The notes: a model not told the origin generated them from the letters alone. DNA of 64,000 bases from an uncultured Planctomycetia bacterium (GCA_964650515.1 CAZYUB010000002.1:12708-76707); one strand, 5' to 3'; counted from the first letter of the stretch, positions 1-44,992 are shown. A program made the numbers and translations.

Positions 1-327
1 TTCCTGTTGAAATACGATGACCATGCGCAATTACGAACTATACGGCCCGTCACTCCATATCCCGGTTCGCCGCTTTATTATTACGCGATAGAGAAAGGAT
101 TATTGAAGGATTGTGCGGACTTCTATGAGAATAAACATGTCAATTCGGATCTCATGAGCGTAAACTTCACGGACATGGCGGAAGAGGAGTATTACAGCTG
201 CCTGCTGGACGCGAACAAGAGGTTGATAACTAAATATTACGAGAACAAACATTCCGATTCCATGAAACAGGTCGATGACATTTACCTGAAGAAGGATCCG
301 GCATTCAGGGGATTCAGGCAGACATAA
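1..327 (+). CDS. C-terminal fragment of a B12-binding radical SAM protein (5'-truncated by window edge)
   Basis: Frame is open from nt 1. The tail 'TPYPGSPLYYYAIEKGLL' parallels the C-terminal 'PG(S/A)P(L/I)Y' segment of the four complete B12-rSAM paralogues in this window (e.g. 'PIPGAPLYDFAKL', 'AYPGSPIYSEAV'). Confidence 0.5.
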   Translation, partial: FLLKYDDHAQLRTIRPVTPYPGSPLYYYAIEKGLLKDCADFYENKHVNSDLMSVNFTDMAEEEYYSCLLDANKRLITKYYENKHSDSMKQVDDIYLKKDPAFRGFRQT

Positions 328-351
328 ATGCGAAGAAGAGCGGAGGTTTAC

Positions 352-834
352 ATGGGTACTAAAAAATGCCGCATGTTGGATGATATCGGCCTTATTGTGT
401 ATGATTTCGACGGGGTCTTCACGGATAACAAGGTGATTCTCAGGGAGGACGGCAAGGAGAGCGTTGTTGTGAACAGGTCCGACGGACTTGCGGTTGGCAT
501 GCTGAAAACCCTGGGTGTCCCGCAATTCATACTGACTACAGAAACAAACGGTGTCGTCAGATCCCGTGCGAAAAAGTTGGGCATCGGTATCAAAAAAGGG
601 CTGAAAGACAAGAGGTCGGCGCTTGTATCATTATGCAAGACGCACGGCGTGTCTCTCAGGAATGTAATGTTCGTTGGAAATGATATCAATGACCTCGAAG
701 CGATGAGGGAATGCGGCTATCCGGTTGCGCCAGCCGACTCTTACGCCCCGGCAAAGAAGGCAGCAAGGATAATCACAAAGGCAAAAGGCGGCGGCGGGGT
801 AGTGCGTGAACTGCTGGATATACTGTTAAAATAA
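352..834 (+). CDS. KdsC-family HAD-IIIA phosphatase (3-deoxy-ulosonate-phosphate phosphatase-like)
   Basis: HAD motif I 'IVYDFDGVFTDN' and motif IV 'GNDINDL', about 160 aa, as in KdsC/NeuAc-9-P phosphatase. ATG 352 has GGAGG 6 nt upstream; ATG 328 directly abuts the previous stop and is an alternative start. Confidence 0.6.
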   Translation: MGTKKCRMLDDIGLIVYDFDGVFTDNKVILREDGKESVVVNRSDGLAVGMLKTLGVPQFILTTETNGVVRSRAKKLGIGIKKGLKDKRSALVSLCKTHGVSLRNVMFVGNDINDLEAMRECGYPVAPADSYAPAKKAARIITKAKGGGGVVRELLDILLK

Positions 835-836
835 AT

Positions 837-2669
837 ATGCTTACATATGACTTGGGTATGATGAGGTCACCGGACGGCTCGTCATTAAGATATGAAGTGG
901 AAAGAAAGTCCTCCGATCTTGCTATTAAAATTTCGGAGGCCATTGCATCCGAGCGCGCGTATGAAGAGATTTCTGGAAGGCTTCCAAGCCGAAGGGTTCG
1001 GTCGTATTTCCAGTACCTGCTGAAGAAGGAAGTGTATCCTTATGTCCGCCAAGCCTGCGTGATTGATTGGTATAGGCGAAACTCAAAAGAAGTATCTCCG
1101 GAGAACCGTCCTGTAAAGGTTCCGATCGGAGGAATATTCCCGCTACTGATTCAATGCTGGGATTTTAACGATATTAAGATAATACCCGAAATAAAAGTAT
1201 GCTCAGTTTATAAGTCATTACCTATTATTGGTAAGCGGATCAAAGATATGTTATATAGGAAGAATCGCGCTCATAATTATAGCATGACGTTGCGCAAACC
1301 TGACGGATATATGATCGCGTGCCATTATACAGAAGGAATTGATCCGCTCAAGAGGAATGACCTTAACTGGTATGATGGAAGCGGGATTGATCCCATGAAG
1401 GTATTAGTCTATTTCGACACCCCCAACAACAGTAACGGAAATCCTGTTAGGAAGGAAGAGGTTGATAAGCTGAGAAAAGCGGGGTTCACAACCGTGGTAT
1501 TGAAAGAAGGCATTGTCGAGGGGGGTGAAAATATTTTATGGCCGGGTCCGGCAAATTGTAGGGATAGTGCTGTAGATATCCGGTCTGCGTCCAATTCCGT
1601 GGAGCGTTGGATATACGCAGCAGGTAACGATATTATCGGAGATGTTAAATATTGGCGTGCATTCCATGATGATTTTAATGTTAGGATAAACTATATTCCC
1701 GAGGAAGGCGCCATAAAGAACCATGCGCAGGCAATTGCTTTCGATATGGACGGGGAAAAGGGTGGGTTGCTTGCAGGTAAACAGCGCTCGGAAGCATACC
1801 TTCCTTATAGATACCATTTGGGATATCATCCGAAGCATTTGTTCTTCATGTGGAACAGCAGGGCCGCGGGGCAACTAGGTTGTGGAACTGAAACAATAGA
1901 CGATATTGTACTGACCGGCTATACTTATGACGCACTAAAAAGGTTGCGTTTCGATGGAGAAGGTTTACCGTCAAAGGATATGAGGACTCGCGGGGCAAAG
2001 ACCGTAATAGCATTGTTTGATAACATGCATGGATGCGATTATTTTGTATCGACGAATGACATGGTGCGTTTCTATAAAGCATTTTTTGAATGGGCCATTG
2101 CAGATGATAAAATCGGGTTGATAATTAAATCCAAGAAACCCATGGTCATGGAGAGGCTGCCGCGGATCCGGACATTGATGGCCAAAGCAACGGATACGGG
2201 CAGATGTATAAAGATGGACGACGAGTGGGGAAGGTATCCGTCAGATGCATCATTCGGTGCGGATTTTGCAGTCGGAACCGGGATATCGTCCGCCGTAATG
2301 GAATCGGTGATTTCAGGATGCAGGGGCATACATTATGACGCGACTCATTTGATAGGGCATGAATTCTACAAATGGGGACATAACAGGATAATCTTTGATG
2401 ATCTTGATAAGATGGTGAGTGCGCTGAAAGGATATGCCTTTGACCCGGGAAGTGAAGAAGGCCTCGGGGATTGGTCAAATCATTTAAATGAGATCGACTC
2501 CTTCCGTGACTGGAAGGGTGGAGAACGCATGGGTCAGTATATGAGAATATTACTGGAATCGTTCGATAAAGGAATGACAAGGCGCGAGGCTTTGGACAAT
2601 GCCGATAGGTTTTACAGGGACAAATGGGGGCAGGACAAGGTCATAAGGACGGGACAAACAAATGGATAA
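837..2669 (+). CDS. hypothetical protein with GT-B-like C-terminal signature (candidate capsule-type KpsC/KpsS- or TagF-like transferase)
   Basis: 610-aa ORF in the lower-GC block. C-terminal 'AVGTGISSAVMESVISGCRGIHYD' resembles the GT-B donor-binding helix. Same architecture as 9641..11491 and 17197..18633. No firm family assignment. Confidence 0.35.
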   Translation: MLTYDLGMMRSPDGSSLRYEVERKSSDLAIKISEAIASERAYEEISGRLPSRRVRSYFQYLLKKEVYPYVRQACVIDWYRRNSKEVSPENRPVKVPIGGIFPLLIQCWDFNDIKIIPEIKVCSVYKSLPIIGKRIKDMLYRKNRAHNYSMTLRKPDGYMIACHYTEGIDPLKRNDLNWYDGSGIDPMKVLVYFDTPNNSNGNPVRKEEVDKLRKAGFTTVVLKEGIVEGGENILWPGPANCRDSAVDIRSASNSVERWIYAAGNDIIGDVKYWRAFHDDFNVRINYIPEEGAIKNHAQAIAFDMDGEKGGLLAGKQRSEAYLPYRYHLGYHPKHLFFMWNSRAAGQLGCGTETIDDIVLTGYTYDALKRLRFDGEGLPSKDMRTRGAKTVIALFDNMHGCDYFVSTNDMVRFYKAFFEWAIADDKIGLIIKSKKPMVMERLPRIRTLMAKATDTGRCIKMDDEWGRYPSDASFGADFAVGTGISSAVMESVISGCRGIHYDATHLIGHEFYKWGHNRIIFDDLDKMVSALKGYAFDPGSEEGLGDWSNHLNEIDSFRDWKGGERMGQYMRILLESFDKGMTRREALDNADRFYRDKWGQDKVIRTGQTNG

Positions 2670-3834
2670 GCTCAATATTCTTGTTGTGGGAACAGGCATG
2701 TACGTTTGCGGCCGCGGCACATCTGGGGACGGGACCATAATGCCGGCGATATTCGAATGGGGCAGGACTGGAAATATCGGGAAGGTAATTGTAGCGGGCA
2801 GGAGTGCGTCCGGCGCAAAGGAAGCGAGAAGGAAGATAAGCGCGCTCAGCAGGAAAATGGGCGTATCCATTCCGGTATCTTTCTATCCGCAAGGGAACGA
2901 CGACGCAAAGGCGTACCTTAAAGCTATAGAAGACATGCCTCGGCCGGCATGCGCACTTGTGGCGACACCTGACAGGCTGCATAAGCGTAACGCAAAGGCG
3001 GCCATAAAAGCGGGATTGAATACGCTTGTAGTCAAGCCGCTTGTATCGACCGCTGCGGAAGTAAGGTCGCTTGTAGGCCTTCAGAAACGGATGAAAGTGT
3101 ATTGCGCGGTGGAATTCCATAAAAGGTATGATGATGCCAATCTGAAGCTAAGGGATGTTATATCACAGGGTGCTATAGGTGACCCGCTGTATTTCCTTGC
3201 TGAGTTCAGCCAAAGGAAGAGCATGCCGGAAAAAGTATTCAGGAGATGGGCAGCCTCTACTAATATTTTCCAATACCTTGGGATCCATTATGTGGACATG
3301 ATCCACTTTGTCACCAAGGCGAAACCGGTGCGGGCAATGGCTACCGGCCAGTCGTATTGGCTGAAATCAAAAGGCATTGATACGTATGATGCCGTTGAAG
3401 CCGTTACCGAGTGGAAAATGAAGAATGGAAAAAGATTCGTCTCGCATATACTCACCAACTGGATAGATCCCGAGAAGACATCGGCAATGTCCGACCAGAA
3501 GATAAAGGTCATAGGCACGAAAGGAAGATTTGAGTCAGATCAAAAGGACCGCGGAGTTACGATGGTTACCGACAAGAATGGCATAGAAGAGATCAATCCG
3601 TATTTTTGCGGCCAGTATGGCCCTTATGGGAATGTGAGATTTCGCGGCTATGGAATAGACAGCATAAAGACCTTTCTCGATGATTCTATAGCGGTAGAAT
3701 ACGGCAGCAAAACCATTGAAGAACTTGAGAAGGAAAGGCCTACCTTCAGCGACTCGCTTATATCCACAATGGTGCTTGAAGCCGTTAATACAAGCTTGAA
3801 ACGCAACGGTAAATGGGTTGAGATAGGCGGATGA
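2662..3834 (+). CDS. Gfo/Idh/MocA-family NAD(P)-dependent oxidoreductase
   Basis: N-terminal Rossmann 'LNILVVGTGMYVCGRG' and 'EWGRTGNIGKVIVAGRSA'; 390 aa, typical for this family (sugar dehydrogenases). Confidence 0.65.
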   Translation: MDKLNILVVGTGMYVCGRGTSGDGTIMPAIFEWGRTGNIGKVIVAGRSASGAKEARRKISALSRKMGVSIPVSFYPQGNDDAKAYLKAIEDMPRPACALVATPDRLHKRNAKAAIKAGLNTLVVKPLVSTAAEVRSLVGLQKRMKVYCAVEFHKRYDDANLKLRDVISQGAIGDPLYFLAEFSQRKSMPEKVFRRWAASTNIFQYLGIHYVDMIHFVTKAKPVRAMATGQSYWLKSKGIDTYDAVEAVTEWKMKNGKRFVSHILTNWIDPEKTSAMSDQKIKVIGTKGRFESDQKDRGVTMVTDKNGIEEINPYFCGQYGPYGNVRFRGYGIDSIKTFLDDSIAVEYGSKTIEELEKERPTFSDSLISTMVLEAVNTSLKRNGKWVEIGG

Positions 3835-4874
3835 AAAGGATATCCGTACCGCACGAGCGGTTATCGGTATTTATAAAGAAAGTGCTTCTGAATGCCGGGG
3901 TGCGCGAAGATGTTGCGTATCATGTCACTGAAGGACTCGTGCAAGCGTCATTAAGGGGCGTCGATTCCCACGGCATAAGGCTCTTTCCGCATTATATGGC
4001 GTCGGTAAAAGCCGGCAGGATAAATCCCGGCCCCGCATATAAGTTCGAGAGGACATCAGCCTCTACCGGAAAGTTCGACGCGGACCATACGTTCGGGCAC
4101 GCCGCGGGCATAGAGTCGGCGAGGAAGGCTGTGGAGCTCGCGAAGGAAGCGGGGACGGGCAGCATAGCCGTGTTCAATTCGACCCACTTCGGCGCGGCCG
4201 CATATTTCACGCTCGAGATAGCCAAACAGGGGATGATAGGGTTGAGTTTCACTCATGCGGATTCCCTGATGAAGACATATGCGGGCAAGAGGGCGTTCCT
4301 CGGGACGAACCCGATATCTTTCGCCGCGCCGGTGGAGGGCGAAGAGCCGTTCTGCCTAGACATGGCCACGACGCTTTATAATTTCAACAAGATAAAACAG
4401 CTGAGGGAGCGCAAGCATCCCGCACCGGAAGGCGTAGGCGCGGATACGGAAGGCAATGAGACGACGGATGCGGATAAGATATCGATGCTGCTTCCAATAG
4501 GCGGATACAAAGGATACGGCCTCAGCCTGATGGTGGAGGTGCTTTGCGGGATACTTACCGGCATGCCATATGGCCCGAATATATCGAGCATGTTCAAGGC
4601 GCCGTTATCGCAGAAAAGGTTCCTCGGACATTTTATTTGCGCCATGAGGATAGACTGCTTCCAGGAAGAGAAAGTGTTCAAGCGGCGCATGTCCGCGCTT
4701 TTGAATGAACTGAGGAATGAGCCTCCCATGGAGAAAGGGGTACCGGTGCAGGTGGCGGGAGACCCGGAGAAGAAGGCCGCCTCGGCAAGGATGAAAGAAG
4801 GGATACCGATGGCCGCGCAGGAGGCGGAGGCCTTCATGAAGTTATCCGCCGAATACGGGGTGGAATTCATATAG
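3831..4874 (+). CDS. Ldh_2 family (malate/L-lactate/L-sulfolactate-type) dehydrogenase
   Basis: 'GVDSHGIRLFPHYMASVKAG', 'HTFGHAAG', 'GSIAVFNSTHFGAAAYF' match the type-2 malate/L-lactate dehydrogenase fold; 347 aa. Confidence 0.6.
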   Translation: MKRISVPHERLSVFIKKVLLNAGVREDVAYHVTEGLVQASLRGVDSHGIRLFPHYMASVKAGRINPGPAYKFERTSASTGKFDADHTFGHAAGIESARKAVELAKEAGTGSIAVFNSTHFGAAAYFTLEIAKQGMIGLSFTHADSLMKTYAGKRAFLGTNPISFAAPVEGEEPFCLDMATTLYNFNKIKQLRERKHPAPEGVGADTEGNETTDADKISMLLPIGGYKGYGLSLMVEVLCGILTGMPYGPNISSMFKAPLSQKRFLGHFICAMRIDCFQEEKVFKRRMSALLNELRNEPPMEKGVPVQVAGDPEKKAASARMKEGIPMAAQEAEAFMKLSAEYGVEFI

Positions 4875-6520
4875 TGGAAAGAGCGGACTTCGCGATAATA
4901 GTCCCTCCGGCGGGGGTAAGCAATACGGTGTATCCGCCGTACGGGGCGATGTACATAGCCAGCGCGGCAAGGAAGGCGGGGCTAGAGGTCCGCATAATCA
5001 ATGTCGATACAGACAGGATATCGAACGCTGAAGTGATTAAACGGCTGAAGGCGTTCGGGCCGGGGTTTATAGGCATAAGCGGTATAGTCGCGCCGTCATA
5101 TAGATATATCAAATGCCTCAGCACGGATATTAAGTCCGCGATGCCGGAGAGCATACAGATACTCGGCGGAGGGTTATCGAGCGCGGCAGAGACGGTCCTG
5201 AGGAACATGCCGGTGGATTACGTCATAGCGGGCGAAGGAGATTCGGCAATAACGGAACTCATCGGCCGCCTGCGGAACGGGAAGGTTCCTTCGGATGTAA
5301 CCGGGCTTTATTACAGGGATGGCGGAAAATACGTATTCACGGGCGCGAGGAGACTTATCGCGAATATAGATGAATTGCCGTATCCCGCATTCGACCTTGT
5401 CGATATGTCCAGGTATATGCCTGACGGGAAGGAGTTCATAGGGTATTTCATCCAGGATATAAAGGACAGAAGGATAACGGATCCCGGCCGTAAGGGCGGG
5501 ATGGTGACGATACCGACAGGCAGAGGATGCTTCGGGAAGTGCTCATTCTGCTTCAGGGCATACCCGGGGCTCAGGACCCATTCCATGAAATATGTATTCG
5601 ACCTCATAGAATACTGCGCGGAGAAATTCGGCACGAGCTACTTCTCCTTCGGGGACGAATGCTTCGCGCCGAACAAGGAACATAATTGGAGGTTTATCGA
5701 GGAGTACAAGAGGAGGAAGCTCGACCTCGTCTTCAGGATACTCGGCATGAGGGTCGACACGGTCGACAGGGATATATTGCACGCTTATAAAGATATAGGA
5801 TGCTGGATGATCGAATATGGTTTCGAGGCCGGCAACCAGAGGATGCTGAATATCATCGACAAGAGGGTTACTGTGGAGCAGAACAGGCAGGTCGCCCTCT
5901 GGACCAGGGAGGCGGGGATATATACGTCGCCGACGATCGTCCTCGCGATGCCCGGAGAGACGGACAGGACAGTCAACGAATCTATAGGGTTCCTTAAATC
6001 GCTGAACCTCGGTTATAAGCAGTACCAATGGTCGTACGCCCTGCCGATACCCGGCGCGCCGCTATATGATTTCGCGAAGCTGTCGGGCGCCATCAAGGAC
6101 GAAGACGAATATCTCACCTCGCTTGACGGCAAGGTCGCGGGCGCGGGGGTCTTCCATGTAAATCTTACCGATGAGCCGGACTCGACTGTCGCCGGATGGG
6201 CGGACAGGATAAAGGAAGAGGTCGACGCGGATTATTTCAGGAGGGTATACAGGTTCGGGGCGGTTGCCGCGATAGCGCGCCTTTTAAAGAAGATCCGCCT
6301 GCATTTAAGGAGGAAGGACCTGAAGGATGTCATCAAAGGAAAATTGAAGAGCATCTGGCGGGGACATCCGGGCGGGCAAACCTCTGCCCCTGTCGCAGTC
6401 CCGGCAAGGTTCAGGAAGAGAAGTGATATCGTATTCGAGGACCTGATAAAGGGCATGGACGATACGGTCATCAACAGGGATATGGCGCTGAAGAACATAA
6501 ATACGAGGATTGCGTCGTGA
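4874..6520 (+). CDS. B12-binding domain radical SAM protein (class B rSAM; probable sugar C-methyltransferase or epimerase)
   Basis: N-terminal cobalamin-binding Rossmann-like region, then 'TGRGCFGKCSFC' (CxxxCxxC) radical SAM cluster motif. GTG start overlaps the upstream stop. Confidence 0.7.
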   Translation: MERADFAIIVPPAGVSNTVYPPYGAMYIASAARKAGLEVRIINVDTDRISNAEVIKRLKAFGPGFIGISGIVAPSYRYIKCLSTDIKSAMPESIQILGGGLSSAAETVLRNMPVDYVIAGEGDSAITELIGRLRNGKVPSDVTGLYYRDGGKYVFTGARRLIANIDELPYPAFDLVDMSRYMPDGKEFIGYFIQDIKDRRITDPGRKGGMVTIPTGRGCFGKCSFCFRAYPGLRTHSMKYVFDLIEYCAEKFGTSYFSFGDECFAPNKEHNWRFIEEYKRRKLDLVFRILGMRVDTVDRDILHAYKDIGCWMIEYGFEAGNQRMLNIIDKRVTVEQNRQVALWTREAGIYTSPTIVLAMPGETDRTVNESIGFLKSLNLGYKQYQWSYALPIPGAPLYDFAKLSGAIKDEDEYLTSLDGKVAGAGVFHVNLTDEPDSTVAGWADRIKEEVDADYFRRVYRFGAVAAIARLLKKIRLHLRRKDLKDVIKGKLKSIWRGHPGGQTSAPVAVPARFRKRSDIVFEDLIKGMDDTVINRDMALKNINTRIAS

Positions 6521-7563
6521 TAAAGGAAGCACTGCTTGGCGCGGATTACAGGTTCGACGGGGCGCGGGCGCCCGAATCGCTGAGCAGCCCGCAGAATGAG
6601 GCGAGGGAGCTCTTCCTTAAGGAAATCCACGCGAGGGGAAGATACATCGACGTAGAAAGATGCCCTTTCTGCGGGGCGACGGAGTTCACTAAGATATCGG
6701 AAAGGGACGCGAGGGGGCTGCCGTGCGAAGTGGCCGTCTGCGACGCCTGCGGCGGTTGCTTCAAGAACAGGATATTGGACCCGGAGGCGAACAGGTACCT
6801 ATACGAGAAGATATCATACAAGCTTAGAGGCAAGGACCGTTCTCCCGGTGCGGTAGAAGCGCTGTTCAGGAAAAGGATAAAGGAATTCGCCTACCCGAGA
6901 TACGGGTTCATAAGGCATTTCGCCGAACTGGAGCAGGATATGGACCTTATCGCCGAATTCGGCTGCGGCGACGGAGCGAACCTGGTCCCGTGGAGGAATG
7001 ACGGTTTCAGCGTGACAGGCATCGAGTTCGACGGCGGAATGGTCGAGTTCGGCAAAAGCAAGGGGCTCGACCTCGTTCAGGGCGATTTCATGACTCACGA
7101 CCTCGGAGGGGCGAGGCCGAAGCTTATAATACTGTCGCACCTGCTTGAGCATGTATCGGACATGGACGCGGTCTTATCGCGCATACATTCCGTGCTCGAC
7201 CCTTACGGATACCTTTTCATAGAAGTGCCGGGCGTGAAAGGACAGGGCCTTGGCAGGCCGTTATCTTCGTTCGATGTTGAGCACAATTACTATTTTGACC
7301 TCGAAAGCCTTTCGTCGGCGCTGGGGAAGAACAGGTTCTCCGTGGCTTACGGAGACGAATATATAAGGATGATCTGCAGGCCGGCCGGCGCGCAGATCGC
7401 GGGACCGCAGAATAAGAAGGCCGGCGCGCGAAGGTTGTTGGACCTGTTCAGGCGAGAGGAGTCGGGAAGCATCAGGGCGAAGGTCATGAACAGGCTGACC
7501 GGCGCGTACTTCAAGGCGTATTATTCGATATTATCGTCAGGAGTCGGACATGGCAAAGCGTAA
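6517..7563 (+). CDS. class I SAM-dependent methyltransferase with N-terminal Zn-ribbon
   Basis: 'CPFCG...C..CG' zinc ribbon, then SAM motif I 'IAEFGCGDGANL'; GTGA start overlap. Confidence 0.6.
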   Translation: MIKEALLGADYRFDGARAPESLSSPQNEARELFLKEIHARGRYIDVERCPFCGATEFTKISERDARGLPCEVAVCDACGGCFKNRILDPEANRYLYEKISYKLRGKDRSPGAVEALFRKRIKEFAYPRYGFIRHFAELEQDMDLIAEFGCGDGANLVPWRNDGFSVTGIEFDGGMVEFGKSKGLDLVQGDFMTHDLGGARPKLIILSHLLEHVSDMDAVLSRIHSVLDPYGYLFIEVPGVKGQGLGRPLSSFDVEHNYYFDLESLSSALGKNRFSVAYGDEYIRMICRPAGAQIAGPQNKKAGARRLLDLFRREESGSIRAKVMNRLTGAYFKAYYSILSSGVGHGKA

Positions 7564-8287: not shown

Positions 8288-8288
8288 T

Positions 8289-11491: not shown

Positions 11492-11492
11492 A

Positions 11493-24552: not shown

Positions 24553-24558
24553 TAAGCC

Positions 24559-25401: not shown

Positions 25402-25417
25402 TCTAGGGAGGTTAGAG

Positions 25418-27391: not shown

Positions 27392-27392
27392 T

Positions 27393-32298: not shown

Positions 32299-32299
32299 G

Positions 32300-34094: not shown

Positions 34095-34097
34095 TAA

Positions 34098-38022: not shown

Positions 38023-38026
38023 AGCG

Positions 38027-38545
38027 ATGAAAAGACCGGAATCCCACGGAAGCGGCGCATGCAAACGCTCGCAATTCGCGAAGATAGGCAAAGGAGTAGT
38101 GATCGAGAAAGGGGCGCTATTCTTCCATCCCGAGAATATCGAGATAGGTGATAACGTATATGTCGGGCATTACGCGATAATCAAGGGTTACTACAGGAAC
38201 AGGATGAAGATAGGAAGCGGGACGTGGATAGGCCAGCAGGCGTTCCTGCACAGCGCTGGCGGCATCACGATCGGCAAAGGCGTGGGGATCGGCCCGCATG
38301 TCCAGGTCCTGACATCGTCGCACGGGACCGGCGGCGCCGGGACCCCGGTAATGCGCAATAAGCTGCAATTCAAGCCCGTCATAATAGAGGACGGTTCGGA
38401 CATCGGCACCGGGGCAATCATACTGCCGGGAGTCAGGATCGGCAAGAACGCGATAATAGGCGCGGGAGCGGTGGTCACGAAGGATGTCCCTGCGTCATCG
38501 ATAGCCGTCGGGAACCCGGCAAAGGTAATAAAGAAAAGGAAATGA
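38027..38545 (+). CDS. hexapeptide-repeat (LbH) sugar O-/N-acetyltransferase (WbbJ/maltose acetyltransferase-like)
   Basis: Tandem hexapeptide '[13 protein letters not shown]', '[32 protein letters not shown]' and tail 'VGNPAKVI'. Confidence 0.75.
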
Positions 38546-39228
38546 AGCCCGTAATCTCGGCCATAGTGATGGCATATAACGAGGCTGCGAGCATAGATGA
38601 CACATGCCGCGAGATACACGGAGAATTATCCCGTATCGGCGACCCGTTCGAGCTCCTTATCATAGACGACGGCAGCACCGACGGGACGTCCGCGAAGGCC
38701 GACTCTATCGCCGCTTCCCTGCCGTACAGCAGGGTCGTGCACCATGCGGCAAATTCGGGCCTCGGGGGCGTATACAGGACGGGCTTCTCGGCCGCAGAGG
38801 GCAGTTATGTGACGTTCTTCCCGGCAGACGGGCAATTCCCCGCCGATATAATAGGGAAGTTCAGGCCCATGATGGGCGAATATGACATGGTGCTCGGATA
38901 CCTCCCCGAGAGGAAAGGGCAGGCGTTCGCGAAATTCCTGTCTAAGGCGGAGAGGTGCCTCTATGCCGCGCTGTTCGGGAAATTGCCGGTATTCCAGGGG
39001 ATAATGATGTTCAGGAGGGAACTGCCGGGCATGTTCAGGCTGAAGTCCTCCGGCAGGGGCTGGGCGGTCGTCATGGAGCTCATAATAAGGGTATCCCGCG
39101 CGGGTTTCAGGATAACGAGCGTCCCGACCGGATACCGGCCGCGGAAAAGCGGTTCATCGAAGGTCAATAACCTGAGGAATATCGTCGCAAACCTTGTCCA
39201 GGTCATCGTGCTGAGGTTCAATATATAG
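38542..39228 (+). CDS. GT2 polyprenyl-phosphate glycosyltransferase (DPM1/ArnC-like, short soluble form)
   Basis: '[14 protein letters not shown]...[11 protein letters not shown]...[14 protein letters not shown]...FPADGQFP' as in 23617..24552 and 49246..50184. Confidence 0.65.
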
Positions 39229-39229
39229 C

Positions 39230-40765
39230 ATGAAAAGGCCCGTAGCCATAGCGTTGCTGTTGCTGATGAACCTTACGGCGCATTTCATGCCGTTCGAAAG
39301 GGCGGCGCTCGCGCCGGATGATTACGCGACGCTCGTAAGGTCGCTTCCGGCCGTGGAATGCGGGACTTCACACATAAAGGCGTATGCAGACAGGCCGCTG
39401 AATTACGCGTTCCTCGCCCTGCAGGCAAAATACATAGGCGACAATGCCGGGCTGGCGTTCATCCTGTTATTCCTGTCCGCCTGCGCGCTTTTGCTGGCCG
39501 TATTTATGCTGCTTGAAAGGATATTCGGGGATACAGCCGCGGCTTTCATAGGGGCGGCGGTATTTTGCCTGCTCCCGAACAAGCTTGAGACGTACCATAC
39601 GCTAATATTCCTTAATATTAACCTCGTATCGCTTATATATGTCGTGAGCTTCGCGCTATTCATCGCCCATGCAGGCACAGGCAGGAGAGAGGTCCTTCTT
39701 GCGTCAGTGTTGTTGTATGCCGCGGGCATATTCTGGTATGAAGTGGGATTTTTTATGCCTTTGCTGATGTTATCCTATTGTTTCCTGGACAAGAGATGCA
39801 GGCCGGTATCGGTAATGCCTTTCATGGCGGTGGCGTTGTTTTATGCGGTCTACAGGTTCACGGGGGCCTACGGCATGGCTGCCGGAGCGGAAGGGCAGTC
39901 CCATTCCGTCTCATTGGCTATGCTGCCGCTCAACATCAAGGAGCTGTTCCATCATTATGCCGGAAGGTATGCGGCCCGCAGCGTATTATACGGTTTCTAT
40001 AATTTCGCGGCTATGCAGACCGTATGGCTTGTCGCCGTGTCGGCGGCGCTGCTTGCGCTCATCATTTCGGTGAGGTCTGCTCTTGCGGGCACGGGAACGC
40101 CGGAAATAAGAAAGGGCACCTTTATGCTCGGGCTGGCGGCGTTCTTAACCATGATGTTGCCGATATTGTTCAATGATAAGGGAGGAATAGGCGGAAGGCA
40201 CCTGATGCTTCCGTCGATAGGCGTGTCCATAATGGCGGTGCCGGCGCTGATGTACGCGGGCAAGGCGTGGAAACATATTCTGATAGCGTTCATAATTATT
40301 ATGTCCGTCGTGGGAGCAGGGAATGCATGGACACAGGTGGTCGCCTGCCGGATAAACGCGGCGGTGTTCGGGTATTTGAAGTCGAACGGCCCGGCGCTGG
40401 GATCCGCAAAGGCCGTGGTAATAGATACGAACAGTTTTGCGGAGAAGATAAAATATACGCTGGTGAAGAGGGATTTTAACCTCTTTAACACATATTACGG
40501 GGCGCAGGCTTTTGAGGATTGGGGGCTCATAAGCATGGTAAGGTGGGCGGCGAAGGACAGCGGAAAGCAGGTATACGTATCCATAAGCTCGCCATATGCC
40601 AAAAAGGGCGAGGTCAAGTTCTGCGTTTACGAATATAAAGGATACCGTTCAAAGGGCGTAAAGGACATACGCCTGCCCGCCGATGGGACGTTCGTGGTAG
40701 GAGCTAAAGAGGTATTCGGAGGCGATACGGATGCAGGCATCAGAAAGCTGGGCATAAGGAAATGA
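39230..40765 (+). CDS. polytopic membrane protein (GT-C-like glycosyltransferase or polymerase candidate)
   Basis: About 12 hydrophobic helices with a short soluble C-terminal tail; no soluble catalytic domain; lies in the GT2/GT-C context. Confidence 0.4.
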   Translation: MKRPVAIALLLLMNLTAHFMPFERAALAPDDYATLVRSLPAVECGTSHIKAYADRPLNYAFLALQAKYIGDNAGLAFILLFLSACALLLAVFMLLERIFGDTAAAFIGAAVFCLLPNKLETYHTLIFLNINLVSLIYVVSFALFIAHAGTGRREVLLASVLLYAAGIFWYEVGFFMPLLMLSYCFLDKRCRPVSVMPFMAVALFYAVYRFTGAYGMAAGAEGQSHSVSLAMLPLNIKELFHHYAGRYAARSVLYGFYNFAAMQTVWLVAVSAALLALIISVRSALAGTGTPEIRKGTFMLGLAAFLTMMLPILFNDKGGIGGRHLMLPSIGVSIMAVPALMYAGKAWKHILIAFIIIMSVVGAGNAWTQVVACRINAAVFGYLKSNGPALGSAKAVVIDTNSFAEKIKYTLVKRDFNLFNTYYGAQAFEDWGLISMVRWAAKDSGKQVYVSISSPYAKKGEVKFCVYEYKGYRSKGVKDIRLPADGTFVVGAKEVFGGDTDAGIRKLGIRK

Positions 40766-42114
40766 AAAGGGTCTCGGCGGGATTTCTGGCGGCCTGCGCG
40801 ATCTTCGGCTCGTCGTATCTCATATCACCGGGTTTTGCGTTATGTATACTGTTGTCCGTTGCGTTCTTTTACGCGGTCCGCAGGAATACCGGCGAAGACG
40901 ACAGGATGTTCGTATTATTCATGATATCGGCCGCGGTGGTCCTGAGGGTCGCGGGCCTCATAATACTGCAATACAAATGCCTTTCGATGGGCCAACTGGA
41001 TATCTTCGGGGACGCCCAGGACAACATCATACAGGGGATAAATATAAGCGATTCAATCAGGAACATGAAAGAGATCCCGGTCACGCCGCAATCGATATTA
41101 TCGAGCAGGTACAATACGCATTCGATGACAATATTCAACGGGATATTCTTTTTATTGTTCGGACACGATATCGTATCGTTGAAATACGTAAATATACTGG
41201 CGATATGCGCGACGGCGTGGATAATATACGACTTCGCAAAAAATATATATTCCGGCGCGGCAGGCAGGATCGCACTCGCGATAATACTATTCTGGCCTAC
41301 TGTATTCATCTGGTCGTTGACAGACCTCAAGGAGAGCCACCTGTTGTTCACGGTCGCATGCTCGTTCTGGCTGCTTGACAAGGCGGCAAGGGGGAAGGGA
41401 GTGTTAAGGAAGGCCGTTTTCGTCACGCTGTCGGTCCTGTTCGCGTTCTATTTCGTACTGCTGAAGATAAAGTTGATGATGCCGGTTTTCATCCTATCCG
41501 CGTCATTGATCGTGCTTTATAACGCGCTGCATTACGGGTTCTCTAAAGACCCGGCACTGTCGCGGAAGGTGTTGTACGTATCGCTTGTACCCGCAGCCGC
41601 GATCATAATGGCGTTCGGCGGCCGCATATTACAGGCCGCTAAGGGAATGTATGCGTTGATACTACATTACCATATAGGGTTCCTTAACAGCGGAGGATGG
41701 AATGTAAACCTTATAGGCGACCAGTCACAGTGCTATTTCACGCTGCAATTTATAACAAAATATATCGTAAAAGCCTGGTTGTATTTCCTTCTTGAGCCGC
41801 TTCCGTGGCATTTTTATTCGTTTAGCCTTACCGTTACATATCCGGTGATGATCACATGGTACATCCTCGTGGCGTTCTCCGTTGTCGGTATAGGAAAGAT
41901 ATTTTACTCTGGTAAGGCGAAAGAGATTTTTGCGATGCTTGTATTTATGACTATATATATCACGGTAGTCGGAATGTCTGTGGCGAACATAGGGACTTTA
42001 ATACGTTTTAGGGATGCAATGGTGCCTATCGTGGCGTTGTTCGCGGGGATAGGGCTATCGGGGATATCGCGGATACCTACGGTAACGGAGGAGAGATGCA
42101 AGAACATACGATAA
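40762..42114 (+). CDS. polytopic membrane protein (GT-C-like glycosyltransferase/O-antigen polymerase-like candidate)
   Basis: 450 aa, at least 10 hydrophobic helices; ATGA overlap with the upstream gene. Confidence 0.4.
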   Translation: MKRVSAGFLAACAIFGSSYLISPGFALCILLSVAFFYAVRRNTGEDDRMFVLFMISAAVVLRVAGLIILQYKCLSMGQLDIFGDAQDNIIQGINISDSIRNMKEIPVTPQSILSSRYNTHSMTIFNGIFFLLFGHDIVSLKYVNILAICATAWIIYDFAKNIYSGAAGRIALAIILFWPTVFIWSLTDLKESHLLFTVACSFWLLDKAARGKGVLRKAVFVTLSVLFAFYFVLLKIKLMMPVFILSASLIVLYNALHYGFSKDPALSRKVLYVSLVPAAAIIMAFGGRILQAAKGMYALILHYHIGFLNSGGWNVNLIGDQSQCYFTLQFITKYIVKAWLYFLLEPLPWHFYSFSLTVTYPVMITWYILVAFSVVGIGKIFYSGKAKEIFAMLVFMTIYITVVGMSVANIGTLIRFRDAMVPIVALFAGIGLSGISRIPTVTEERCKNIR

Positions 42115-43547
42115 GGAAGGCCTTGATACCGGCGGCCGGGAAAGGTATAAGGGCATATCCGAAGAGCAGGTATCTTCCGAAGACGCTCCTCGAGATAGAA
42201 GGAAAACCCCTGATCGAGAATAACATAGCGATATTAAGGGACCAGCTCGGGATAAAGGACATTACCGTGATCGTGGGGCACCTTGCCGATAAGATAAAAG
42301 CCCGGCTCGGGGACGGGAGCCGGTTCGGGGTGTCTATCAAGTATTTGGATTGCGGCGATCCCGACGAAGGCCTCGCGAAGGGCATACTGCTGGCAGAGAA
42401 GGAGTTCGACGAGCCGTTCATATGCATATTGGGCGATGAGTACTACTTCGGTTCCAACCATTCCGGGCTTGCGAAGATCCCGGCAGACGCCGGCTATGTC
42501 TGCGCGGTAAAGCACTCGACAGACATTAAGTCCATCAAGAAAAATTATAACGTCGAGATCGAGGGCGGGTTCGTCAGCAGGATAATCGAGAAACCGGCCG
42601 AGATCAGGCAATGGAACCTGGGGTGCGGGACATATCTGCTCAGGCCGGAGATATTCGGCCTGATACGCAGGACGAAGCCGTCGCACAGGAGCCATAAGGT
42701 CGAATTCATGGATGCGCTCGACCTCGCCGTGCAGGAAGGCGCGAAGGTGAAGCCGTACTACCTCGAAGGCATATACTATAACATCAATACCATCGAAGAC
42801 GTGAACCAGTGCAATTATGATATCCGTTCGCTGAATTTCGGAAAATACAAGGTAAGCGTCGTGATACCCGCGCATAATGAGGAAGCGACCATAGCTACCG
42901 TCATCGAGGACCTGCGGCAGCACGTCGACGAGGTGCTTGTAGTCAATAACGGCTCGAACGACAGGACCTCCGAGGTCAGCAGGAAGGCCGGCGCGAGGGT
43001 CGAGGAGGTCTCGTTGAAGGGCTACGGCGACACTATAAAGCACGGCCTCGAAAAGGCGTCCGGCGACATACTCATCGTGACCGAGGCGGATTACTCGTTC
43101 CGTTCGAAGGATATAGGCAAGTTCCTCGAGTACATAAAGGATGCCGACATGGTCATTGGCACGCGGACGACGCGGCAGCTCGTTGAACAGGGGGCGAACA
43201 TGAGCCTGATGCTGCTGCTCGGGAACCTCGTATACGCGAAGATAGTCGAGATCCTCTGGTGGGGCATCGACCCGCCGCGTTTTACCGATGTCGGCTGCAC
43301 CTACAGGGCCATTTGGAAGAGCTCGTTCGAGAAGATAAAGGGAGACCTGAAGTCTACGGGGCCGGAGTTCTCCGTCGAGATGATGATAAAGACGCTCAAA
43401 TACAAACTGCGCGTCCTTGAGATACCGATATCGTATTACCCGCGCCTTGAAGGCGTATCGAAACATTCGAAGAACTGGTTCGGCATCCTGAGGACTGCCT
43501 CGAGGATGATGCGCCTTATAATAAGAGAAAGGCTGGACAACAGGTGA
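42096..43547 (+). CDS. bifunctional sugar-phosphate nucleotidyltransferase / GT2 (DPM1-like) glycosyltransferase fusion
   Basis: N-terminus 'ALIPAAGKGIRAYPKSRYLPKTLLEIEGKPLI' (NTP_transferase). C-terminus 'VSVVIPAHNEEATI...LVVNNGSNDRTSEV...ILIVTEADYSF' (GT2). Confidence 0.6.
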   Translation: MQEHTIRKALIPAAGKGIRAYPKSRYLPKTLLEIEGKPLIENNIAILRDQLGIKDITVIVGHLADKIKARLGDGSRFGVSIKYLDCGDPDEGLAKGILLAEKEFDEPFICILGDEYYFGSNHSGLAKIPADAGYVCAVKHSTDIKSIKKNYNVEIEGGFVSRIIEKPAEIRQWNLGCGTYLLRPEIFGLIRRTKPSHRSHKVEFMDALDLAVQEGAKVKPYYLEGIYYNINTIEDVNQCNYDIRSLNFGKYKVSVVIPAHNEEATIATVIEDLRQHVDEVLVVNNGSNDRTSEVSRKAGARVEEVSLKGYGDTIKHGLEKASGDILIVTEADYSFRSKDIGKFLEYIKDADMVIGTRTTRQLVEQGANMSLMLLLGNLVYAKIVEILWWGIDPPRFTDVGCTYRAIWKSSFEKIKGDLKSTGPEFSVEMMIKTLKYKLRVLEIPISYYPRLEGVSKHSKNWFGILRTASRMMRLIIRERLDNR

Positions 43548-44992
43548 AGCGCGCGATAAGGAAAGCGCTGCTTTGCTATCCGCCGGTGGGGCTGTTCCAG
43601 AGGGGCGAGGAGAGGTGCCAGGCGGATATCGAGGGCTCGGCGACACAGGCGCCGCATGCACCTAATGACCTCGGGTATATCGCCGCTTGCCTCGGAAGGC
43701 GGGGGATAGAATGCATAATAAAGGATTATCCGGCAGAGGGGGTGCAGGAGGCGGCCGTGCTGGAAGAGGTAAAGGCATACTCGCCGGACATTATGCTTAT
43801 CAGCACGACTACGCCTACGTTCCCCGAAGACGTCCGGTTCCTGGAGAAGGTAAAGTCGGCTCTGCCGGGGACATTTACCGTCGCTAAGGGAAGTTGTTTC
43901 TGCTCGCTTCCGCTGGATGAACTTCAGAAATGCGAATACAGGCCGCTCGACGCTGCCATTTACGGGGAAGCCGAATTTATAATAGAGGAACTGGTTAAAG
44001 CTTTGGGGGCGGACGGCCGCCTCGACGGAGTAGAGGGTATAATAATAAATATCGGGACGAAGGATGCCGCGAGGACCGCGCGCCCGCGATTCCGTGAGGA
44101 CCTCGATTCCCTGCCGTTCCCAGCGAGGGGCCTGATGAACAACGGGCTCTACAGGAACCCGCTTACCGGCAGGCCCATGGCCACTATACTTGTCTCCCGC
44201 GGGTGCCCTTCACAATGCATATTTTGCCTTACGCCGGTAATATCCGGGCATAAGTTCAGGAAGAGGTCCGTCGGTAATGTCTTGGATGAGATAAAGGACT
44301 GCGTTAAGAATTACGGCATCAGGGATTTCTTCTTCCGTGCCGACACATTTACAATGGATAACGAATACGTGAAACAGCTGTGCGGCAGGATACTGGATGA
44401 AGGGCTCAAGATAACATGGGTGGCTAATAGCAGGGCCGACGTGGTAAGCAAGGAGCTCCTCGCGGCGATGAAGGCGGCGGGATGCGCGCTCGTCGCGTTC
44501 GGGTTCGAATCCGGCAATGAGGATATACAGCGGAAGATCAAGAAGAACGCGTCCGCGGATGACGCGCGCCGCGCGGTCAGGTTATGCAGGGAAGCGCGGC
44601 TGAAGACGCTCGGGTTCTTCATGATAGGTTTCCCGTGGGACGATGAGAAGACGGTTGAGGACACGGCCGCGCTGGTCAGGGAACTCGATTGCGATTTCAT
44701 AGAAGTGCATATAGCGCTGCCGTTCGAGGGCACGGAGCTCAACGACATATGCCGGGACCTCGGGCTCATAAAGGAGACATCGGTCGGATACAACTATTTC
44801 TCGAACCCTTACGGCGGCGGGACGCTGCACCTGGGAAGGGAACGCCTGGCACAGCTCAGGAAAGATATCATAAAGAGACAGTACCTGAGGTTACCGTATA
44901 TATTTCGCATGCTTACGCACTGCAGCTCTTTTTATGAATTCATGAACTACATCAAGTACGGTTTCAGGCTCCTCGGAAAGGTCGCGTGTTGA
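43544..44992 (+). CDS. B12-binding domain radical SAM protein
   Basis: 'VSRGCPSQCIFC' CxxxCxxC. N-terminal B12-binding-like region 'IGSATQAPHAPNDLGYIAACL' as in paralogues. GTGA overlap start. Confidence 0.7.
   Translation: MKRAIRKALLCYPPVGLFQRGEERCQADIEGSATQAPHAPNDLGYIAACLGRRGIECIIKDYPAEGVQEAAVLEEVKAYSPDIMLISTTTPTFPEDVRFLEKVKSALPGTFTVAKGSCFCSLPLDELQKCEYRPLDAAIYGEAEFIIEELVKALGADGRLDGVEGIIINIGTKDAARTARPRFREDLDSLPFPARGLMNNGLYRNPLTGRPMATILVSRGCPSQCIFCLTPVISGHKFRKRSVGNVLDEIKDCVKNYGIRDFFFRADTFTMDNEYVKQLCGRILDEGLKITWVANSRADVVSKELLAAMKAAGCALVAFGFESGNEDIQRKIKKNASADDARRAVRLCREARLKTLGFFMIGFPWDDEKTVEDTAALVRELDCDFIEVHIALPFEGTELNDICRDLGLIKETSVGYNYFSNPYGGGTLHLGRERLAQLRKDIIKRQYLRLPYIFRMLTHCSSFYEFMNYIKYGFRLLGKVAC

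Follow-up and report, generated by a model that had tools for sequence, protein, structure and literature searches.

Five class-B-type radical SAM genes and their probable role in sugar tailoring in a surface-glycan locus of an uncultured bacterium

A 64,000-nucleotide stretch of DNA assigned to an uncultured Planctomycetia bacterium (GCA_964650515.1, CAZYUB010000002.1:12708-76707; here called the window, with positions counted from its first letter) is a mosaic surface-glycan assembly locus of ~63 kb that carries five genes for cobalamin (B12)-binding, or class-B-type, radical S-adenosylmethionine (SAM) enzymes. Judging from sequence and gene context, we consider it probable that these five enzymes, each placed in its own sugar-precursor cassette, use radical chemistry in the absence of oxygen to tailor activated sugar intermediates. 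This is a known kind of enzyme met in a new and widely distributed context, that of surface-glycan cassettes. To our knowledge, the only settings in which class B radical SAM enzymes are known to tailor sugars are a small number of antibiotic pathways and the side chains of hopanoids. The cassettes described here recur in Omnitrophota, Planctomycetota including Brocadiaceae, Nitrospirota, Saganbacteria, and many environmental metagenomes.

Identification of five B12-binding radical SAM genes

The five genes, which we assign to families A to E, are as follows (L numbers, here and below, are handles for related loci on other contigs).

1 to 327 (+): 3' end (108 codons) of a B12-binding radical SAM gene, family E; 81% identity to the syntenic L002:4094-5482
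4874 to 6520 (+): B12-binding radical SAM protein, family A, 548 amino acids (aa); PF02310 64.1 bits, PF04055 61.6 bits, CFGKCSFC at residue 219
15710 to 17206 (+): B12-binding radical SAM protein, family B, 498 aa; PF02310 49.8 bits, PF04055 78.6 bits, CAYKCSFC at residue 214
19556 to 21076 (+): B12-binding radical SAM protein, family C, 506 aa; PF02310 66.2 bits, PF04055 69.5 bits, CVYQCSYC at residue 193
43544 to 44992 (+): radical SAM protein, family D, 482 aa, AprD4/HpnJ-like, with a weak B12-type Rossmann domain; PF02310 37.0 bits, PF04055 85.2 bits, CPSQCIFC at residue 221

The first-pass annotation of the window had described four complete genes with a cobalamin-binding N terminus followed by a CxxxCxxC cluster, and the open reading frames (ORFs), the motif, and both Pfam domains all bear this out. 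Each of the four proteins contains the motif once, and no other of the 55 plus-strand proteins contains it. A hidden Markov model (HMM) search placed all four above the gathering cutoffs for the B12-binding domain (PF02310, cutoff 32.1 bits) and the Radical_SAM domain (PF04055, cutoff 29.5 bits), which assigns them to the radical SAM superfamily with class B architecture. The Rossmann G-G pair is kept in families A, B, C, and E and is invariant in family A (G98-G99) and in family B (G103-G104). The protein encoded at 43544 is a marginal member of the class, having K-G in place of G-G, and many of its homologues have no PF02310 match. The canonical DxHxxG cobalamin ligand motif was absent from all five in a motif scan. 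We rejected this absence as an argument against cobalamin binding, since the solved class B radical SAM enzymes hold cobalamin base-off, with no protein ligand (PMC12931638).

The fragment from 1 to 327 matches no Pfam or NCBIfam model by itself. All 108 of its residues align with residues 355 to 462 of the 462-aa product of L002:4094-5482, which contains both PF02310 and PF04055 and in which the CxxxCxxC motif of this family is seen. That gene occupies the same position on a related Omnitrophota contig, directly upstream of a KdsC-like phosphatase. Because of the 81% identity and the shared synteny, the earlier proposal that the fragment is a fifth, 5'-truncated B12-binding radical SAM gene appears well supported, by proxy of its homologue.

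The five had also been called paralogous, a term that applies at the level of the superfamily and fails for them as one paralog set: pairwise identity among the four complete proteins is 23 to 28%, compared with 40 to 95% within families. By sequence comparison, they represent five separate orthologous families found in several anaerobic phyla. A C-terminal PG(S/A)P(L/I)Y segment, said to be common to them, is present in the fragment and in the proteins at 4874 and 15710, partial in that at 19556 (NTPIY), and missing from that at 43544 (GTELN). The families differ in size. Family A has 131 homologues (40 to 95% identical among the 120 best listed), family B has 339, and family D has more than 1,651, including a protein, encoded on a JGI contig, that is 100% identical to the 43544 protein. 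Family C is small, with five representative clusters at an identity of at least 42%, beyond which the matches belong to the superfamily at large. No characterized orthologue exists for any of them, in agreement with the first-pass statement that their substrates and products would be undescribed.

Gene neighborhoods of the five families

The five genes lie among genes for sugar activation and glycosyl transfer, as first noted, and this placement is kept across phyla. The genes around families E and A are listed below, using GT2 for family 2 glycosyltransferases and CMP for cytidine monophosphate.

328 to 834 (+): KdsC/Kdn-9-phosphate phosphatase-like phosphatase of the haloacid dehalogenase type; Pfam Hydrolase_3, with the Kdn-9-phosphatase and KdsC models best in NCBIfam, both below cutoff
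837 to 2669 (+): 610-aa protein with a weak match to a PFTS-motif polysaccharide biosynthesis model (TIGR04417, 36 bits versus a cutoff of 100); no Pfam or PDB match
2662 to 3834 (+): GFO/IDH/MocA-type sugar oxidoreductase (cassette A), by Pfam; co-occurs with family A in Omnitrophota, Brocadiaceae, and Saganbacteria
3831 to 4874 (+): Ldh_2-family 2-oxo/2-hydroxy-acid dehydrogenase (cassette A); PF02615 349 bits; co-conserved with family A across phyla
6517 to 7563 (+): class I SAM methyltransferase (cassette A); Methyltransf_23/11/25; co-conserved with family A
7550 to 8287 (+): CMP-ulosonic-acid-type cytidylyltransferase (PseF/KdsB-like); PF02348 79.6 bits, PseF best in NCBIfam, below cutoff
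8289 to 9641 (+): GT2 fused to a CTP_transf_3 cytidylyltransferase; PF00535 and PF02348
9641 to 11491 (+): conserved 616-aa protein (cassette A); no significant Pfam, NCBIfam, or PDB match
11493 to 13298 (+): ABC exporter (MsbA/PglK type) with fused transmembrane and nucleotide-binding domains; ABC_membrane and ABC_tran; present in some close relatives and absent from others

The phosphatase is kept upstream of the cassette in L001, L002, and L004, and the 610-aa protein is syntenic in the same loci at 46 to 59% identity. Cassette A comprises the family A radical SAM gene, the GFO/IDH and Ldh_2 genes, the methyltransferase, the CTP_transf_3 gene, the GT2-CTP_transf_3 fusion, and a Pfam-less protein of 616 to 650 aa, usually with an ABC exporter. 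This set is kept, in shuffled order, in three Omnitrophota contigs, in Brocadiaceae, and in Saganbacteria, and a Nitrospirae locus carries its accessory genes. The fusion protein is 99% identical to its counterpart in L001 and 56 to 60% identical across phyla, and the 616-aa protein adjoins the fusion gene in L001, L002, L004, L006, L008, and L018. NeuB-type synthases are encoded just upstream of the cassette in the Omnitrophota relatives (L001, L002, L004) and nearby in Saganbacteria. In L002, the full-length family E gene sits between a group with SPASM radical SAM and NeuB genes and the KdsC-like phosphatase.

Related cassettes also contain additional, non-B12 radical SAM genes of the SPASM or Fer4_12 type (L002:3013-4083 and 18418-19377, L004:15360-16319, L018:5469-6386, and L001:1-554 and 1890-3224); the window itself has none. 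Since related loci add these genes, the radical chemistry of such glycan loci is broader than the five B12-binding genes.

Family B follows an aldolase-like gene and a cytidylyltransferase gene.

13273 to 14997 (+): HMGL-like (pyruvate aldolase/synthase-type) protein (cassette B); PF00682, with 4-hydroxy-2-oxovalerate aldolase best in NCBIfam, below cutoff
14994 to 15728 (+): KdsB, CMP-Kdo-type cytidylyltransferase; NF009905 289.8 bits versus 255, NF003952 276.8 versus 193, TIGR00466 158.7 versus 155.2
16963 to 18633 (+): conserved protein without a Pfam match; the ORF overlaps the 3' end of the family B gene
18630 to 19559 (+): GT2 glycosyltransferase; PF00535 116.8 bits

With its curated cutoffs passed, the product of 14994 to 15728 is, by sequence, a bona fide KdsB. 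The CTP_transf_3 proteins make up the KdsB/NeuA/PseF family, which activates ulosonic acids as CMP-sugars. The ORF at 16963 probably has its real start near 17206, and a homologue of its product follows family B orthologues in L026 to L029, L035, and L036.

A metagenome scan for family B returned 505 relatives, the best 80 loci were examined, and 54 are surveyed in the counts given here. This census covers family B only, and statements on families A, C, and D come from a handful of loci. Among 26 loci of at least 6 kb with family B orthologues (at least 36% identity), 25 have glycan-type neighbors, 15 a CTP_transf_3-family gene, 10 an HMGL-like gene, and 16 a second B12-binding radical SAM gene. 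The 28 loci with more distant relatives show glycosyltransferase neighbors in 22 cases and two to five B12-binding radical SAM ORFs in 17; a CTP_transf_3 gene was found in 0 of these 28. One metagenome-assembled genome (MAG) labeled "Proteobacteria" has an HMGL-like gene, an HpcH/HpaI aldolase gene, a family B gene, and a CTP_transf_3 gene. Two or more B12-binding radical SAM genes occur in 33 of the 54 surveyed loci, and some have five. Five such genes in one locus are thus striking, not unique, and loci with several are common in metagenomes. Two of these metagenome loci, L057 and L065 (~17 kb each), hold five B12-binding radical SAM ORFs interleaved with GT4 glycosyltransferase genes. AsnB-like amidotransferase genes adjoin distant family B relatives in 7 of the 28 loci.

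Downstream of family C lies a longer cassette with short-chain dehydrogenase/reductase (SDR) genes, annotated by Pfam and by prediction of transmembrane (TM) segments.

20950 to 30094 (+): cassette C, with a sugar-1-phosphate nucleotidylyltransferase, a 4,6-dehydratase-type SDR, an epimerase-type SDR, two methyltransferases, and an AsnB-like amidotransferase, by Pfam
23617 to 24552 (+): GtrB/ArnC-like GT2 with two C-terminal TM segments (cassette C), by Pfam and TM prediction
28199 to 30094 (+): PMT_2 glycosyltransferase of the GT-C type (cassette C), by Pfam and TM prediction

Relatives of family C at 58 to 61% identity come from Omnitrophota, Planctomycetes, and Magnetobacteriaceae. In three of four distant loci, a homologue of the GT2 (50 to 53% identical) directly follows the radical SAM gene and a PMT_2 homologue lies 4 to 6 kb downstream; in the two Planctomycetes loci, a nucleotidylyltransferase gene and a 4,6-dehydratase-type SDR gene also follow. 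Taken over all loci, the GT2, dehydratase, and PMT_2 genes recur beside family C in Planctomycetes and Omnitrophota. The two C-terminal TM helices of the GT2 are typical of GtrB/ArnC-type polyprenyl-phosphate sugar synthases.

Family D is flanked on both sides by genes that recur with it.

42096 to 43547 (+): sugar-1-phosphate nucleotidylyltransferase fused to an AglJ/dolichyl-phosphate-hexose-synthase-like GT2; PF00483 and PF00535, with AglJ and dolichyl-phosphate hexose transferase models below cutoff
44986 to 49244 (+): DegT-like aminotransferase, Acetyltransf_6 (FemAB-like) protein, polysaccharide deacetylase, and GT2, by Pfam

A homologue of the fusion protein, 68% identical, adjoins the family D homologue in L020, where the genes corresponding to 44986 to 49244 follow; these also occur in L017 and L018. 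An Omnitrophota relative at 64% identity retains the whole neighborhood, namely, a GT2, two membrane proteins, the nucleotidylyltransferase-GT2 fusion, the radical SAM protein, the DegT-like, Acetyltransf_6, and deacetylase proteins, and a GT2.

Two minor features of this cassette deserve mention. The DegT-like protein (44986 to 46119) has an aminotransferase match only over residues 22 to 158 (model positions 49 to 191 of 360; 60.9 bits) and may be a divergent or degenerate pyridoxal phosphate enzyme. The family D alignment contains conserved cysteines besides those of the cluster (C25, C253, C280, C314, and C383), the first of them within an N-terminal R20-x-E22-x-R24-C25-Q26 stretch, and these may, from their conservation, form an auxiliary metal site.

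These neighborhoods bear on what kind of substrate the enzymes act on. It could be argued that the substrates are not sugars at all but a lipid carrier or anchor (polyprenyl, hopanoid, or ladderane type), or a peptide or protein, with the glycan genes nearby only by coincidence. The HpnJ, HpnR, and ladderane-lipid radical SAM models are among the best matches, lipid-linked intermediates are suggested by the MsbA/PglK-type exporter and the three GT-C enzymes, and family D has relatives outside glycan loci, one of them beside a UbiA prenyltransferase gene. Families A and B, however, co-vary with cytidylyltransferases and aldolases and not with lipid genes, and the lipid-linked HpnJ reaction still takes place on a sugar moiety. 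[quoted passage not shown] We consider nonsugar substrates improbable, and a RiPP or lipid pathway was rejected for lack of precursor or lipid-synthesis genes.

Comparison with characterized enzymes

The highest NCBIfam scores of the four complete proteins are to BchE (139 bits) and HpnJ (122) for 4874, BchE (142) and ApyD (106) for 15710, MJ_1487 (97) and PhpK (91) for 19556, and HpnJ (192), BchE (137), and AprD4 (116) for 43544. The BchE model (TIGR02026, cutoff 481) gives 70 bits for 19556, the AprD4 model (NF033070, cutoff 500) gives at most 58 for the proteins other than 43544, and the cutoff of the HpnJ model (TIGR03471) is 577.6. For methylase models, the maximum scores against their cutoffs are 113/360 for MgmA (TIGR04014), 105/600 for PhpK, 89/650 for HpnR, 49/700 for KedN5, 84/282 for the RiPP C-methylase TIGR03975, and 48/500 for TsrM; the library has no models for GenK, GenD1, or Fom3. 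"BchE" (from JGI) and "YgiQ" labels on homologues were rejected as annotation carry-over, BchE scoring 142 bits at most against 481. For the four complete genes, YgiQ is missing from the models listed; for the family E homologue, it reaches 31.6 bits against 462.

The PDB sequences nearest to the window proteins are AprD4 (6FD2) and MgmA/QCMT (9CCB). The latter code appears in both PMC11796369 and PMC12931638, with the label QCMT in PMC12931638, whereas the title of the PDB entry names MgmA. AlphaFold2 models of the 4874 and 43544 proteins are confident (pLDDT of 90.6 and 90.5, respectively) and superpose on TsrM, MgmA, OxsB, TokK, CysS, and AprD4.

For the family D protein at 43544, the apramycin 1,2-diol dehydratase AprD4 is both the top PDB sequence-profile match (143.8 bits; E value, 5e-41) and the best full-length fold match (Foldseek E value, 4e-27; TM score, 0.73 to 0.78). 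AprD4 acts on a sugar, and its Rossmann-like domain binds no cobalamin (PMC12931638), in line with the weak B12 signature at 43544. The two differ in the cluster motif (CX3CX3C for AprD4 as aligned, CX3CX2C at 43544) and are 21 to 22% identical, and no AprD3-type partner was identified for 43544. The best curated HMM for this protein is HpnJ, which catalyzes ring contraction of a lipid-linked glucosamine; the match covers positions 50 to 441 of 472 at one third of the cutoff. The GT2 and deacetylase genes near 43544 recall hpnI and hpnK, but hopanoid genes are absent from its surroundings. HpnK is a YdjC-type deacetylase, whereas the deacetylase near 43544 belongs to PF01522.

The fold ranking for the family A protein at 4874 is that of a generic class B enzyme (MgmA, TsrM, AprD4, OxsB). 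The solved methylases MgmA/QCMT (9CCB) and TsrM (6WTE) are its top fold matches (E values, 1e-20 and 7e-20) and give its top PDB sequence-profile match (83.5 bits), although they act on protein glutamine and on tryptophan, respectively, are only 17 to 20% identical to it, and superpose with TM scores of 0.54 to 0.69. Family A also has an extra C-terminal region of ~130 residues relative to both. BchE, the anaerobic Mg-protoporphyrin cyclase, is the best NCBIfam model for the proteins at 4874 and 15710, but the window has no chlorophyll genes and its context is not that of a phototroph.

Two further comparisons concern architecture and pathway. GenK, GenD1, and Fms7, likened here by description, combine the same B12-binding and radical SAM domains and target sugar carbons within a carbohydrate pathway; they differ in belonging to actinomycete secondary metabolism and in acting on pseudo-oligosaccharides, whereas the window enzymes sit in CMP- or nucleoside diphosphate (NDP)-sugar cassettes for surface glycans. 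Theirs is the chemistry that the first-pass annotation had put forward for the window enzymes. Fom3 takes a cytidylylated substrate supplied by an adjacent cytidylyltransferase, and three of the window genes likewise adjoin, or share cassettes with, CMP-type cytidylyltransferase genes. The Fom3 substrate is, however, a phosphonate and not a sugar acid, and the window proteins stay far short of the cutoffs of the P-methylase models PhpK and Sden_1168. We rejected a Fom3/PhpK-like phosphonate pathway on these subthreshold scores and on the absence from the window of phosphonate genes, including that for phosphoenolpyruvate mutase.

Proposed substrates and reactions

Families E, A, and B would act on 3-deoxy-2-ulosonic acids of the Kdo or nonulosonic-acid type. 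Aldol enzymes of the NeuB, HMGL-like, HpcH, or dihydrodipicolinate synthase (DHDPS) type would form these acids, which would then be CMP activated. NeuB, HMGL-like, HpcH/HpaI, and DHDPS aldol-type enzymes form 4-hydroxy-2-oxo acids. We propose this role because of the neighboring aldol enzyme genes, the KdsC/Kdn-9-phosphate phosphatase-like gene, and the CTP_transf_3 genes. It may be the CMP-activated form of the acids that the radical SAM enzymes use, just as the substrate of Fom3 is CMP-linked hydroxyethylphosphonate. The substrate of family C would probably be either an NDP-6-deoxyhexose or the polyprenyl-phosphate sugar formed by the adjacent GtrB/ArnC-like GT2, with the PMT_2 enzyme then transferring the sugar. 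Family D would probably catalyze an AprD4-like 1,2-diol dehydration, yielding a ketone to be aminated by the adjacent DegT-like enzyme, with an HpnJ-like rearrangement as the alternative; in either case the substrate would be a sugar supplied by the nucleotidylyltransferase-GT2 fusion, and the chemistry may not need cobalamin.

The single most likely reaction for families A, B, C, and E would be methylcobalamin-dependent methylation of an unactivated sp3 carbon, for which we see an about even chance in each case; epimerization, dehydration, and skeletal rearrangement are the alternatives. The first-pass annotation had predicted a repeat unit with several C-methylated or otherwise radically tailored sugars, and for these four families C-methylation is plausible. 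GenK methylates a sugar CH2OH carbon, and the analogies to GenK and to Fom3, with its CMP-linked substrate, make such methylation, of either the free or the CMP-activated acid, the leading candidate for A, B, and E. Every characterized group of the B12-binding radical SAM network contains C-methyltransferases (PMC12931638). C-methylation by the 43544 protein is unlikely, as its closest relatives, AprD4 and HpnJ, are nonmethylating and its B12 domain is weak.

Several observations weigh against the proposal that all five enzymes tailor activated sugars in dedicated cassettes, or against the reactions suggested for them. None of the four complete proteins reaches the cutoff of any curated NCBIfam family (251 to 750 bits for the relevant ones). 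Clustering with nonmethylating families had been named at the outset as a finding that would speak against C-methylation, and the best-scoring curated models are of that kind (BchE, HpnJ, ladderane-lipid radical SAM, and AprD4), but all are 3- to 5-fold below cutoff, too low to establish such clustering or to dismiss it. According to a 2026 review, no structural feature separates alkylating from nonalkylating B12-binding radical SAM enzymes (PMC12931638). No ulosonic-acid synthase for cassette A lies within the window, one being deduced from the NeuB genes upstream in L001, L002, and L004, and family B occurs without an adjacent cytidylyltransferase gene in L015, L018, L023, and L024. Finally, family D relatives at 43 to 48% identity stand alone amid housekeeping genes in Caldisericia, Melainabacteria, and another MAG (only three independent loci); family D is evidently not intrinsically glycan specific.

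Some of these points also feed an alternative that we regard as possible, though with more doubt than belief: that all or most of the five are nonmethylating enzymes (sugar epimerases, diol dehydratases, or ring-contracting or cyclizing enzymes) that replace oxygen- or NAD-dependent chemistry in a strict anaerobe. In that case, cobalamin would have the role of an electron sink (compare OxsB) or would be missing (compare AprD4). The nature of the best curated models fits this alternative, as does the position of AprD4 as top fold and sequence match of 43544 and among the top matches of 4874; the locus already has three ordinary SAM methyltransferases, and members of this kind fall in the largest, unexplored group of B12-binding radical SAM enzymes, without distinguishing features (PMC12931638). 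Against it, the HMM scores in question are far below cutoff, methylases are the top fold matches of 4874, four of the five proteins keep the Rossmann G-G pair with solid PF02310 scores, and most characterized class B enzymes are methylases (PMC12931638).

Returning to sugar tailoring with methylation as its leading reaction, we can outline a more specific version, which we put forward tentatively and think more likely wrong than right. In it, Fom3-like B12-binding radical SAM enzymes would extend or rearrange the carbon skeletons of CMP intermediates to give new higher-carbon or branched ulosonic acids, and AprD4/HpnJ-type enzymes would give deoxy-amino or carbocyclic sugars on a lipid carrier, all for anaerobic surface glycans. 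Kdo-type acids methylated at the terminal CH2OH, for example, would become 9-deoxy-nonulosonic-type sugars. The phyla concerned would be Omnitrophota, anammox and other Planctomycetota, Nitrospirota, and Saganbacteria.

Relation to published work and implications

Known sugar-modifying class B radical SAM enzymes belong to the gentamicin, fortimicin, apramycin, and moenomycin pathways and to hopanoid side chains. GenK, GenD1, and Fms7 are among the enzymes listed in the 2026 review (PMC12931638), in which polysaccharides and glycans are nowhere mentioned. Within the library searched, we found no report of B12-binding radical SAM enzymes in surface-glycan, ulosonic-acid, capsule, O-antigen, or anammox S-layer pathways, nothing relevant on Omnitrophota together with radical SAM enzymes, and no paper that describes loci with several B12-binding radical SAM genes. 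The S-layer glycan of Kuenenia contains a methylated N-acetylhexosamine and a 174-Da "dimethylated deoxyhexose," both known from mass spectrometry only, with the methyl positions undetermined (PMC5088730). Because cassette A occurs in Brocadiaceae, the cassettes described here are candidate genes for such methylated sugars, a link that is loose but suggestive.

If the enzymes are active on CMP- or NDP-sugars, they would provide new chemistry in the form of C-methylated, chain-extended, deoxygenated, or rearranged ulosonic acids and deoxyhexoses, and they would offer radical SAM enzymology small, soluble substrate candidates that can be purchased (Kdo and CMP-Kdo). The envelope glycans of many uncultured anaerobes would then depend on cobamides. 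Were the ulosonic-acid version true, B12-dependent sugar diversity would extend to primary cell-envelope biosynthesis, and envelope structure would be tied to cobamide availability.

Organization of the locus

The genes form a codirectional plus-strand train of ~55 genes from 1 to 62863 with overlapping stops and starts, and GC skew is positive over the whole window. By Pfam and NCBIfam, the 55 proteins include 13 with a GT2 domain (two of them fusions), five glycosyltransferases of the GT1/GT4 type, three polytopic PMT_2 (GT-C) enzymes, four proteins with a sugar-1-phosphate nucleotidylyltransferase domain, and three with the CTP_transf_3 (CMP-type cytidylyltransferase) domain. There are also nine SDR-type proteins (dehydratases, epimerases, and RmlD-type reductases), an RmlC-like epimerase, a DegT-like aminotransferase, acetyl- and acyltransferases, a polysaccharide deacetylase, two AsnB-like amidotransferases, and the MsbA/PglK-type exporter. 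The three separate SAM methyltransferases mentioned in the first-pass annotation were recovered by Pfam, all as class I enzymes (6517 to 7563, 24559 to 25401, and 27393 to 28220). A domain of Wzx, Wzy, Wzz, or an initiating phosphoglycosyltransferase was found in none of the 55 genes. An Rfam scan of the window at gathering thresholds found no RNA family, hence no cobalamin riboswitch, and there were likewise no tRNAs.

The mosaic character of the locus is seen in comparisons with two other Omnitrophota contigs (L001 and L013), to which positions 3106 to 11493 and 13263 to 21054 are ~94.5% identical at the DNA level. The intervening ABC exporter gene (11494 to 13262, 1.77 kb) is absent from both as a clean indel. 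Homology stops abruptly at 3106, within the GFO/IDH gene, and at 21054, at the end of the family C gene, and GC content steps from 46 to 48% to 53 to 56% and back at roughly the same places. Taken together, the identity breaks, the exporter indel, and the GC steps suggest cassette exchange in a hypervariable surface-glycan locus.

Such a structure raises the question of whether the clustering of the radical SAM genes could be an accident of a recombination-prone island, with one or more of them, notably 43544, as passengers or decaying copies. The mosaicism itself and the stand-alone occurrence of distant family D members would fit. We nevertheless find this very improbable, the least probable of the alternatives considered, as none of the four complete genes is disrupted, their products keep the residues invariant in each family and have confident folds, their start and stop codons overlap those of their neighbors as in operons, and the same pairs of radical SAM gene and neighbor are found at 38 to 64% identity in other phyla.

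The closest homologues of the window proteins mostly carry names from "Candidatus Omnitrophota," and these names, along with a genome scan, place the window in that phylum. Two proteins that are 92 to 96% identical to window radical SAM proteins (P0122 and P0249) bear the NCBI label "Dehalococcoidales bacterium." Because all other close relatives are labeled Omnitrophota, this label is probably a MAG binning error.

Four GT2 genes are paired with a downstream gene for a polytopic membrane protein (23617 to 24552 with 28199 to 30094, 33189 to 34094 with 35243 to 37066, 38542 to 39228 with 39230 to 42114, and 49246 to 50184 with 50187 to 51896). Like GtrB/ArnC, two of the paired GT2s carry a pair of TM segments at the C terminus, and the membrane partners are PMT_2 enzymes or proteins without an assigned family, with three to eight predicted TM segments. 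These pairs look like several Gtr/Arn-type modules in one locus, each forming a polyprenyl-phosphate sugar that is then transferred in the periplasm.

Five large proteins (475 to 616 aa) have no significant Pfam match (837 to 2669, 9641 to 11491, 17206 to 18633, 39230 to 40765, and 50187 to 51896), and those of 616 and 475 aa adjoin radical SAM cassettes in other phyla too. A PDB sequence search with the 610-aa (837 to 2669) and 616-aa (9641 to 11491) proteins gave no meaningful match, and an all-against-all BLAST of the window proteins revealed no paralogy among these large proteins or among the PMT_2 proteins. The five are candidates for novel CMP-sugar transferases or polymerases. Lastly, long antisense ORFs (450 to 486 aa) lie opposite plus-strand genes at 8220 to 9572, 18054 to 19514, and 42234 to 43661, all on the minus strand, and the strong compositional skew probably accounts for them as shadow ORFs.

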